DNA of 11,551 nt from an archaeon (lineage in GTDB: Archaea > EX4484-52 > B79-G9), in NCBI GenBank assembly GCA_043813875.1, contig JBDRKP010000011.1, forward strand, positions 1-11,551, given 5' to 3'. A program made the translations under genes and the position numbers. Each line of letters begins with the position of its first letter. Position 1 is the first letter of the stretch. A model generated the notes under the pieces. It was not told where the DNA came from. It ran no database searches and was given only the letters and a program-made list of their open reading frames with translations. Shown in pieces: positions 7,967-11,207 of this stretch.

Positions 7967-7996
7967 ATACGCACTCACTCGCCCCGATACTATCGG
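7967..7996 (+). repeat. 30-bp direct repeat, left copy
   Basis: ATACGCACTCACTCGCCCCGATAcTATCGG, 29/30 identical to 10037-10066. Confidence 0.95.
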
Positions 7997-8765: not shown

Positions 8766-9913
8766 ATGGCAATTGACATACAGGACGGAACTCTCGATAG
8801 AGTCTATAATGACATAAGACAGGTATTGGAAAAAGCCCGGGATAATGCCTGCAGGGCAATTAATTTTGCAATGGTGACCGCATATTGGGAAATAGGCAGG
8901 ATAATTGTTGAAGAAGAACAGAAAGGAGAAAAGAGAGCAGAATACGGAAAAGCGATACTCCGAAGTTTGTCCTGTAAACTATCGAAAGAATACGGCAAAG
9001 GATTTGACGACTCAAACCTCAGAAACATGAGGCAGTTTTATCTGACATTCCAAAATTGTGACGCACTGCGTAACGAATTGTCATGGACGCATTACAGGAT
9101 GTTGCTGCGCATCGAAAAAGAAGAAGCAAGACAGTTTTATCTGCATGAGTCTATAGCCAATAATTGGAGCACACGCCAGCTTGAAAGACAGATAAACTCT
9201 CTCTTGTATGAACGTATCGCCTAAAGCAAAGACAAGGAAAAAGTAAAAGAATTGTCATATGGTCAAATCATCAAAGCACCAGAAGACATTATTAAAGATC
9301 CTTATGTTCTTGAATTTCTGGGATTGAAAGACAACACAGGATTACATGAAAGCGACATGGAACAATTGTTGATTGACAAGTTGCAGGCATTTCTACTCGA
9401 ACTTGGGAAAGGGTTTTCCCTCGCATCAAGGCAAAAAAGAATAACAATTGACACAGACCATTATTATGTTGATCTGGTCTTCTACAATTATAGTTGACGT
9501 CGTTAATGGCTGGACAAATATGACCAATAAACCAACAGACGTCAATCTATATGGAAAAGCCATAGTCTAAAAAGTTATGGCTTTTACTATATATTTTGAA
9601 GTGTTTCATTCTTATTGACCTGAAACTGGGAAAACTCACGCATAAGGACATCGGTCAGATGGACTTTTATGTTCGTTATTTCGAGAAAGAAGAAAAGCAG
9701 GAAAAAGACAATCCTACAATAGGTTTGATACTCTGCTCAGACAAAAACGAGTCAATCGTAAAATACACCCTTCTCAATGAAAGCAGGACAATATTTGCAT
9801 CACGATATAAACTCTATCTGCCGACAGAGGAAGAACTCAAAAAAGAGATTACACGAGAGCGGACATTAATAGAACATGAAAAGAAACTTGAAATGCAAAA
9901 GATTCCGCAATAA
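8766..9913 (+). pseudogene. YhcG/DUF1016 PD-(D/E)XK nuclease-family pseudogene (nonsense codon 9222-9224; 101-bp insertion 9493-9593)
   Basis: Family motifs are spread over three fragments: YWEIGR.IVEEEQ.G..RAEYG, LSWTHY, WS.RQLERQI, IKDPYVLEFL, FLLELGKGF, DLVFYN|ILKCF.LIDLK, GQMDFYV, NPTIGLILC, FASRYKLYLP. Reading through the TAA and removing 101 bp restores one 348-aa frame. Confidence 0.9.
9489..9593. mobile_element. 101-bp double-hairpin insertion flanked by TATA direct repeats
   Basis: Removing 9493-9593 gives AAT TAT ATT TTG AAG TGT (NYILKC), the family consensus. Two imperfect hairpins lie at 9489-9551 and 9550-9591. Confidence 0.8.
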
Positions 9914-10036: not shown

Positions 10037-10066
10037 ATACGCACTCACTCGCCCCGATAGTATCGG
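10037..10066 (+). repeat. 30-bp direct repeat, right copy
   Basis: ATACGCACTCACTCGCCCCGATAgTATCGG, 2070 bp downstream of the left copy. Confidence 0.95.
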
Positions 10067-10096: not shown

Positions 10097-10975
10097 CTAT
10101 ATAGGAATATTCCCAAACACAGCTTGTTGCATACTCCCCCCGAAATCAAAACTGGGAAGATACCCCGACGTCACAAGAAAGAAAATCACCCCGATAACAA
10201 CCAGCGAAAACAGGTTGATAATGATTCCCTTCTCCATCTCATACCTCTCATCCCTGTTCAAAAGAAACATCAGCACCGTCACCGACAGGAACCCGCCGAC
10301 ATGCGCAACATGCGCAATCCCGTCATTCGCATTGCTCAGAAGCCCGGAGATATCAGCATAGATAGCAAACCACCCACAGATCATATTCGGCAGCGGCACG
10401 ACCGACGAAAAAGTGATCCCGAACGGGTCAAGCAGTATCGCAGCAGCTATGATCCCCATCAAAGCCCCCGACGCCCCGATAGCAGGGACATCAGACCCCA
10501 TAAGAAACAGATTGATAGCCGAATAGAACGCGCTGCTGATGACCAGCGCCCCGAAATATACCATTGCCGTCTTGGCGCTCCCAAGCTTCCTCTCAACCGA
10601 CCTTGAAAAGATAAATATCCCAAACATATTCCAAAACAGATGCACAAGACTCCCGTGAAGGAACCCTGCAGTCACAAGCGTATAATACCTCCTGTAATCA
10701 AGCAGGTTGCTCGGATAATTGATAAGTGCATTAAACGTTTCACTGCTAAGAAAAAACGCAGCAAAAATCGTGACAGCCACATTGGCAATGATTATGGTGA
10801 TCGTGAACTTCGCCTCGAACAGGAACTCATACATATCATAGAACGGCTTAAACAGATCCCCCCACTCCCTTTTGCCGAGCATCACAAGAACAAGAGTGAC
10901 CGGCGTGAGCAAAACATCATAGATCAGCTTCAGCAGGAACTTCGACTCCGGCTCAATCTCCTTATCATCATCCAT
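10097..10975 (-). CDS. Rhomboid-family intramembrane serine protease
   Basis: FLHGSLVHLFWNM, catalytic GASG, catalytic His in AHVAHVGG, multiple TM helices. A TTATATAT box is at 10999-11006. Confidence 0.92.
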   Translation of the reverse strand: MDDDKEIEPESKFLLKLIYDVLLTPVTLVLVMLGKREWGDLFKPFYDMYEFLFEAKFTITIIIANVAVTIFAAFFLSSETFNALINYPSNLLDYRRYYTLVTAGFLHGSLVHLFWNMFGIFIFSRSVERKLGSAKTAMVYFGALVISSAFYSAINLFLMGSDVPAIGASGALMGIIAAAILLDPFGITFSSVVPLPNMICGWFAIYADISGLLSNANDGIAHVAHVGGFLSVTVLMFLLNRDERYEMEKGIIINLFSLVVIGVIFFLVTSGYLPSFDFGGSMQQAVFGNIPI

Positions 10976-11050
10976 ATTTTCATATTCAATAAACTGATAT
11001 ATATAATTGACATCAGAATGAGTTGTTAAGTCTTATGGTGATGATTATTC

Positions 11051-11207
11051 TATACTCAAGGCATGAAATAAATGAGCAAACTTCAACAAAAACCAATATG
11101 CATTGAGTATTCGAGCAAATCTTTGATTTGCTGAATCCTAAAAATCACGTGTGATTTTTAAGGATATGGAAAGGCACACAACTCAAATTATTAGTGCCTT
11201 TACTATA
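11051..11207. repeat. Four consecutive inverted repeats, TATA-bounded; related to the 9489-9593 insertion
   Basis: Hairpins at 11052-11110, 11114-11132, 11135-11165 and 11165-11207. The last has the same TATGG...A-CTATA frame as 9550-9591. Confidence 0.7.

Follow-up and report, generated by a model that had tools for sequence, protein, structure and literature searches.

A probable family of small non-coding mobile elements built of imperfect hairpins in DPANN archaea

Two related elements in one archaeal contig

Two segments of an 11,551-nt stretch of archaeal DNA, the whole of which was analysed and is referred to here as the window, are probably copies of one family of small, non-coding, non-autonomous transposons of the MITE type with DPANN/Nanohaloarchaeota hosts, a reading to which we give a probability of roughly three in four. 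The kind of element is already known, and this variant is unusual in three traits: it is a chain of local, covarying and imperfect hairpins, the hairpins are gained modularly and may be nested, and the target context is asymmetric. Little has been charted of the mobile DNA in the tiny genomes of Nanohaloarchaeota and other DPANN archaea. A preliminary description of the window had recognized the hairpins; to these we add the inverted repeats at the termini, a probable TA duplication, the disruption of a gene by the first copy and the archaeal host. The two elements (E1 and E2), their modules and the neighbouring genes are as follows.

9489–9591, + strand: E1, 103 nt including one TA per side; two modules (A–E); inside a gene
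9489–9549, + strand: E1 module A, TAG-TTGACGTC / GACGTCAA-T-CTA
9550–9591, + strand: E1 module E, same frame as 11165–11207, with stem AAAAGCCA/TGGCTTTT
11051–11207, + strand: E2, 157 nt including one TA per side; four modules (A–B–D–E); divergent subfamily member
11051–11109, + strand: E2 module A, TACTCAAGGCAT / ATGC-A-TTGAGTA, the hairpin at the left end, whose 33-nt loop is conserved and which includes the left inverted repeat
11110–11135, + strand: E2 module B, TTCG-A-GCAAATC / GATTTGC-TGAA, with G.T wobble and 5′-side bulge retained
11136–11164, + strand: E2 module D, TCCT-AAAAATCAC / GTGATTTTT-A-AGGA, with A5/T5 runs on both strands
11165–11207, + strand: E2 module E, right terminal hairpin TATGG-AAAGGCAC / GTGCCTTT-A-CTATA, with the right inverted repeat inside
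8766–9913, + strand: pseudogene of a YhcG/DUF1016 PDDEXK nuclease, interrupted by E1 and also by an in-frame TAA (9222–9224)
10097–10975, − strand: rhomboid protease gene, outside the element and given for context only

Re-reading of the letters gave the hairpins of E2 as they had been described, with a long-loop hairpin at 11052–11109 followed by AGCAAATC-TTT-GATTTGCT, then ATCCTAAAAATCAC-GT-GTGATTTTTAAGGAT, and a right-hand hairpin that shares its frame and bulged A with 9550–9591. The 3′ boundary of E1 is at 9591, the TA at 9592–9593 being flank, and E2 lies 76 nt upstream of the rhomboid start codon, past an AT-rich stretch near 10998–11010. Folded as single-stranded DNA, 11051–11207 forms four adjacent hairpins with an energy of −28.4 kcal/mol, as compared with −11.6 ± 2.5 for dinucleotide shuffles (z −6.8; 0/200 as good), and 9489–9593 forms two hairpins at −19.9 kcal/mol, as compared with −6.0 ± 1.9 (z −7.2). 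The common right-end pattern occurs in the window only at 9550–9591 and 11165–11207, where 0.00 occurrences are expected (200 shuffles). When the left hairpin was modelled on 17 foreign copies, the window sequence being excluded, the resulting covariance model matched 9489–9549 at 71.3 bits (E 2e-14) and 11051–11109 at 46.2 bits (E 1e-8), while its next-best match in the window, at 17.8 bits, is to the opposite strand of E1 itself. Since both are found by a module A model made from foreign copies, E1 and E2 belong to one family, as had been proposed, with E2 a divergent member.

Related elements in other genomes

A scan of reference genomes with the right-end hairpin pattern TATGGAAANGC-N15–35-GCNTTTACTATA returned 31 loci, 24 of which carry a multi-hairpin element upstream of the match. 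Twenty-three of these are in seven MAGs labelled Nanohalarchaeota, Nanohaloarchaea or 'archaeon', with up to 8 in one MAG, and one (L026) is in a MAG labelled Pseudomonadota, so that the 24 loci represent 8 MAGs and are additional to the two window copies; all of the relatives are known from MAG assemblies. The remaining 7 of the 31 loci are in unrelated bacteria and were taken as chance matches, because their upstream sequence is ordinary and the left-hairpin model finds no module A there. The contig of L026 carries a complete 104-nt copy, which suggests either a mis-binned archaeal contig or a transfer.

The genes flanking the copies differ from one copy to the next and are of archaeal housekeeping type (TFIIB, L7Ae, the glutamine synthetase gene glnA, thiC), and the pyruvate:ferredoxin oxidoreductase α subunit encoded in the window finds its nearest matches among proteins labelled 'archaeon', Aenigmarchaeota and Diapherotrites; from these flanking genes and the relatives of the oxidoreductase we take the host to be a DPANN archaeon. 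When the module A model was run over 160 kb of sequence, no new complete copies emerged, only the known ones, fragments in L002, L012 and L009, and weak matches to the reverse of module E. A blastn search with a 216-nt copy gave no match in phage and plasmid collections.

Complete copies are 103–407 nt long, have no coding capacity, are built of hairpins and share the layout TA-TAG...CTA-TA. Module A (59–61 nt) has the form TAG-TTAAGGTC / GACCTTAA-T-CTA around a conserved loop of about 35 nt, and module E (42–44 nt) the form TATGG-AAAAGCCAT / ATGGCTTTT-A-CTATA. Between them there is either nothing, or module B (TCCGG-G-stem...CTGGA) with module D (TCCT-AAAAAT...ATTTTT-A-AGGA), or B and D with further hairpins, the number of internal hairpins ranging from 0 to more than 8 with some nested in the loop of module A. 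Eight of the 21 complete copies, E1 among them, consist of A and E only (103–104 nt), ten, including E2, have the four-module arrangement (153–158 nt), and the other three are longer (216, 219 and 407 nt). The preliminary description had concluded from two copies that the element is modular, its first and last hairpins being conserved and the number between them variable, and this holds across 24 further loci.

The modules are separable units, to judge from the occurrence of D-type hairpins in either orientation and inside the loop of A (L002 2719–2748; L029 2804–2872). The second copy in L029 has D-like units in both orientations and hairpins nested within hairpins, and additional hairpins are found within the module A loop of L012 and of L002, the latter with a damaged left end. 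Incomplete forms include a lone E (L025) and a fragment accompanied by D and E (L020). All four combinations of the A and E stem variants are found, and the A variants pair freely with the B–D variants, from which it follows that modules have been reshuffled between copies. On the − strand of L009 (311–338) there is a mini-hairpin, TATAGTTAACGCC-GAAA-GGCGTTGAC, which corresponds to the stem of module A minus its loop and the remaining element, and which could be a deletion derivative or a footprint.

Insertion into genes

E1 splits the Pfam YhcG_C domain of the gene in which it resides, the upstream ORF matching profile positions 2–68 and the downstream ORF positions 70–156. Intact 345-aa homologues from Methanosarcina read DLVFYNYILKCF across the E1 site, where the upstream piece in the window ends in ...DLVFYNY and the downstream piece begins with ILKCF..., with zero residues gained or lost by comparison. 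The extra DNA between the codon ending at 9491 and that starting at 9593 amounts to 101 nt (9492–9592), and since the homologues are continuous across the split, what was added is exactly a 99-nt body (TAG...CTA) plus one TA. For E1 this supports, at the protein level, the earlier suggestion that loci would differ by presence or absence of the element at a TATA site. At 9222–9224 the gene also has an in-frame TAA where the homologues have Leu, and given both this codon and the E1 insertion it is a pseudogene. A reading of E1 as an archaeal bulge–helix–bulge intron was dropped, as no such motif was evident by eye and the gene also has a nonsense codon. The C-terminal YhcG piece is 83 % identical to the Methanosarcina homologues, and identity of this order (up to 83 %) to methanogen proteins suggests that the YhcG gene itself was horizontally acquired.

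A second element that touches a reading frame is at L027 (2577–2679), within the TA of the predicted TAA stop codon of a thiM-like gene (CGC-TA[element]TA-A); the frame is now two codons longer, with a protein tail of ...R-Y-S and a TGA inside the element. We note that E1 yields the same Y-S-stop tail. Two loci of a single MAG (L015 and L024) have identical 104-nt copies at different positions, and the family appears to be active, in view of the gene broken by one copy and the identical copies at separate loci. Three contigs (L008, L028 and L029) end within a copy, as is expected of a repeat that breaks assemblies, so that the family accounts for some of the contig breaks in these MAGs; it is also a possible marker for population and host–symbiont studies.

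These insertions bear on a different view of the repeats, according to which they are chiefly structured RNA or regulatory modules of the host, such as two-way terminators, insulators or a family of non-coding RNAs, that were spread by duplication or recombination and whose mobility is incidental or extinct. Most copies are indeed intergenic and near gene ends, the loop sequences are conserved beside covarying stems, and A/T runs adjoin the stems of D and E on both strands. One copy nevertheless destroys a gene, another sits inside a stop codon and identical copies occupy unrelated loci, while the TA flanks and inverted ends (see below) are transposon hallmarks; moreover, a search of the whole window against Rfam gave nothing on either E1 or E2 at E≤1, and the spacing to downstream start codons is not fixed. 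The gene disruption and the identical dispersed copies in particular make a purely host-RNA origin highly improbable. How far the right end lies from the start codons downstream of it is not constant among the copies, and the idea that the element donates a promoter was rejected for that reason. Under the transposon reading some copies may still have been co-opted by the host: the runs of T4–T5 found 3′ of the stems on both strands in modules D and E look like archaeal oligo-T terminators, and the palindromes flanked by A5/T5 might double as two-way oligo-T termination signals for the archaeal RNA polymerase.

Inverted ends, target context and the responsible enzyme

Each copy has a TA at both sides and imperfect terminal inverted repeats of about 27 nt that begin TATAGTWRANG.... 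When the first 27 nt (TA included) are compared with the reverse complement of the last 27, between 15 and 20 positions match in all 21 copies, the mean for shuffles with the first five bases fixed being 10–12 (p<0.01 in 18/21 copies). End-to-end complementarity in the 10-copy alignment amounts to 77 % of cells, versus 25–47 % with the partner slid, and the module A model weakly matches the reverse of module E (~18 bits). Both ends of E2 depart from the consensus in the same way (AAGGCA; TGAG), which indicates that the two ends evolve together.

Of the 21 complete copies, 19 have the left TA. The TA on the right, like most of helix E, was imposed by the search pattern and is not a free observation. 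Duplication of a TA is read from one interrupted gene (E1), one stop codon (L027) and the conserved left TA, and these same data are also compatible with insertion, 3′ of a TA and with no duplication, of an element whose own last two bases are TA. The flanks of the 21 complete copies are unequal, with A or T at 74/84 of positions +1 to +4 versus 50/84 of positions −4 to −1 (background 0.59; Fisher p 4e-5), and position −2 is an A in 14 of them. It follows that insertion, or survival after insertion, is oriented with respect to an asymmetric context, R-N-TA-WWWW, which is not predicted by a symmetric DDE reaction on a palindromic TA.

The enzyme most likely to be responsible is nevertheless a TA-duplicating DDE transposase of the IS630/Tc1-mariner kind, an assignment that we propose by inference and hold at slightly less than even odds. 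Such a transposase, acting in trans, would bind both inverted ends of the element, excise it and join it into a TA, leaving a host TA on either side. The TA on both sides, the inverted ends of about 25 nt and the size classes agree with MITEs of this TA-duplicating style, of which Correia and RUP are bacterial examples (PMC2229807), and transposons of the IS630 group have been reported in archaea (PMC13343696). Pfam searches of 140 ORFs (at least 130 aa) from the 3-kb flanks of the 24 loci that carry the family found no matching transposase and no autonomous copy, and neither an IS630 transposase nor a Y1 transposase (TnpA) or TnpB is present in these flanks. The same ORFs include one IS4-type transposase domain (L022) and one tyrosine recombinase domain; the IS4-like gene was rejected as a partner, as it has its own, unrelated 32-nt repeats.

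Conservation of the hairpins

RNAalifold predicts four hairpins from the ten four-module copies, and the compensatory stem changes first noticed between the two window copies are borne out by the pair counts. Of 440 alignment cells in these helices 98.2 % are paired, as opposed to 30–48 % in slid controls, and 15 of the 44 pairs have changed on both sides; none of 500 column shuffles reaches either value, although such statistics are upper bounds on significance, since the copies are related by descent. Helix A, which lies outside the search pattern, is 95.1 % paired across 19 distinct copies, and compensatory change affects 5 of its 11 pairs. For helix E the figure is 99.2 %; the pattern dictated 9 of its 14 pairs, and among the remaining pairs 4 are compensatory. 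The loop sequence of module A is also conserved. Possible kissing between the loops of A and E (86.5 % of cells paired) was equalled in 50 of 500 shuffles and is indistinguishable from inverted-repeat similarity.

The imperfections of the helices are retained as well. A G.T wobble in helix E is present in all 18 distinct copies, the wobble of helix B is G.U in 8 of 10 copies and A.U in the other 2, and the single-base bulges of B, D and E have kept their places in E2; in helix A, by contrast, the bulge is missing from L007, L016 and L029 and displaced in E2. These features point to a folded single strand, nominally the + strand, which is slightly the more stable in 16 of 20 copies when folded as DNA and in 13 of 20 as RNA. 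We propose that selection maintains the local hairpins while the element is single-stranded, be it as a transcript or as single-stranded DNA; their pairing, wobbles and bulges have outlasted turnover of the sequence. The family is in this respect a particularly clean natural experiment in structure conservation, in which four to more than ten hairpins retain pairing, bulges and wobbles despite replacement of about one-third of the sequence. The selection on single-stranded DNA or RNA structure that the preliminary description had proposed is thus plausible rather than established, the wobbles and bulges being kept even in the divergent E2.

Compensatory changes might instead arise as a by-product of mutation, with intrastrand template switching in quasi-palindromes copying one arm onto the other without any selection. 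Every covarying helix is a local palindrome, there are few intermediates (stems with one mismatch occur in L005, L007, L013 and L016, for example), and B and D are dispensable for movement, in that the short A–E copies of L015 and L024 have transposed without them. Template switching should, however, perfect the palindromes, and the retained bulges and wobbles, including that of helix E in 18/18 copies, argue against simple self-correction of this type, as does the fact that E2, strongly diverged as it is, has the imperfections of B, D and E in the corresponding places; conservation of the loop of A is likewise not explained. We regard this origin of the covariation as quite unlikely.

Hairpins, wobbles and bulges are not needed by a cut-and-paste enzyme acting on double-stranded DNA, and movement as single-stranded DNA therefore also has to be weighed, with a hairpin-recognizing HUH/Y1 enzyme that would place the element 3′ of a TA, always in the same orientation and with no duplication, in the manner of the PATEs of IS200/IS605 or of REPIN/RAYT systems. 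Both ends of the elements described here form subterminal imperfect hairpins (A and E), as expected of a PATE. The two are similar in build, each having 3–5 bp at the base, 8–9 bp in the upper stem and one bulged base on the 3′ side. Covariation in the stems has left the bulges and two G.T wobbles in place, E2 included, and a G.T on the + strand would read A.C on the other. The asymmetric target context implies orientation-specific insertion, and the 101-nt arithmetic of E1 is accommodated equally well if the right end of the element is TA. PATEs and REPIN/BIME repeats share with this family bulged imperfect end hairpins, conservation of structure over sequence, mosaic units and oriented insertion, but they are not known to have terminal inverted repeats or TA duplication. 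The ends of IS200/IS605 elements are alike in direct orientation, and the family uses a target of 4–5 nt. The ends found here, in contrast, are most alike when inverted, loops included (15–20/27), and just 2 nt of target are conserved, the left TA; furthermore, the flanks contain no Y1 transposase or TnpB, and the stability advantage of the + strand is slight. On balance we consider an HUH/Y1 mechanism unlikely, though the least so of the alternatives to the DDE transposase.

Finally, the element may be mobilized in a structure-dependent and strand-specific manner, with an archaeal enzyme reading the chain of imperfect hairpins in single-stranded DNA or a transcript, insertion being oriented by the TA and an A/T-rich tract, and modules being gained between hairpins or within loops. 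We consider this a speculative proposal with a small chance of being correct; if it is, inverted-repeat ends would be joined with hairpin-guided one-strand chemistry, a combination that to our knowledge has not been described for any IS family. Were the transposition machinery to read the hairpins, the family would bridge classical inverted-repeat transposons and hairpin-guided single-stranded DNA transposons. Integron attC sites, IS110 bridge-RNA elements and Helitron/IS91 elements, as these are generally described, were set aside, the present elements having no target specificity beyond TA and inverted ends.

Relationship to known repeats

Among the closest counterparts of the family, judged by description, are the Correia (NEMIS) elements of Neisseria, which are also small, non-coding and dispersed, with TA termini and inverted ends. 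TA termini, terminal inverted repeats, target-site duplication and stable folds are features of bacterial MITEs in general, and Correia elements, for which no cognate transposase is known, have a target-site duplication and terminal inverted repeats of about 24 bp and exist in forms of about 107 and 155 bp that differ by an insert of about 50 bp (PMC2229807). The two main size classes found here (103–104 and 153–158 nt) parallel these, with the B–D block as the difference. The hosts, however, are archaeal, and whereas Correia transcripts fold into one long stem by end-to-end pairing (PMC2229807), in the present elements it is a series of local hairpins that is conserved (98 % paired), complementarity between the two ends being weaker (77 %). 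For the IHF site, the promoter and the RNase III features known from Correia elements there is no obvious counterpart in archaea.

The RUP element of Streptococcus pneumoniae is tied to IS630-Spn1, which its terminal inverted repeats match (PMC2229807). RUP, as it is described there, resembles our elements in its TA target, short terminal inverted repeats and length of about 100 nt, and its TA duplication and mobilization in trans are what we propose for them. Our elements differ in that no partner IS was found in their flanks, in the asymmetric target and in the modular, structurally conserved body. An archaeal example of an IS630-derived MITE is SM1 of Sulfolobus, which has a TA target that is duplicated, short terminal inverted repeats and a length of about 100 nt and is mobilized in trans. 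The modular organization finds a parallel in the pneumococcal BOX elements, arranged as boxA–boxB(n)–boxC, in which the first and last modules are conserved and the stable middle hairpins vary in number. BOX elements repeat one boxB in tandem, though, whereas the internal hairpins described here differ from one another, occur in either orientation and can be nested. Searches of the literature on mobile elements of Nanohaloarchaea and on archaeal MITEs and IS630 turned up no account of this family; an automated census of archaeal MITEs exists and may list copies of it (10.1101/2024.01.18.576219).

Other repeats in the window

A 74-bp tandem repeat (2.1 copies, 90 % matches) is present at 2469–2624 in the non-coding stretch that follows a PAP2 gene, with one hairpin in each unit. 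The only Rfam match of the window, to mir-2574 at 2534–2591 (E 0.64), was taken as chance. A further repeat is a 30-nt block found at 7967–7996 and 10037–10066 with 29/30 identity and unrelated flanks, which contains the palindrome CCGATA-N-TATCGG. One copy is just downstream of the rhomboid gene and the other is between a DUF488 domain and an RNA-ligase ORF, within the long DUF488 ORF as listed; the block could serve as a binding site for a protein or represent a further small repeat.
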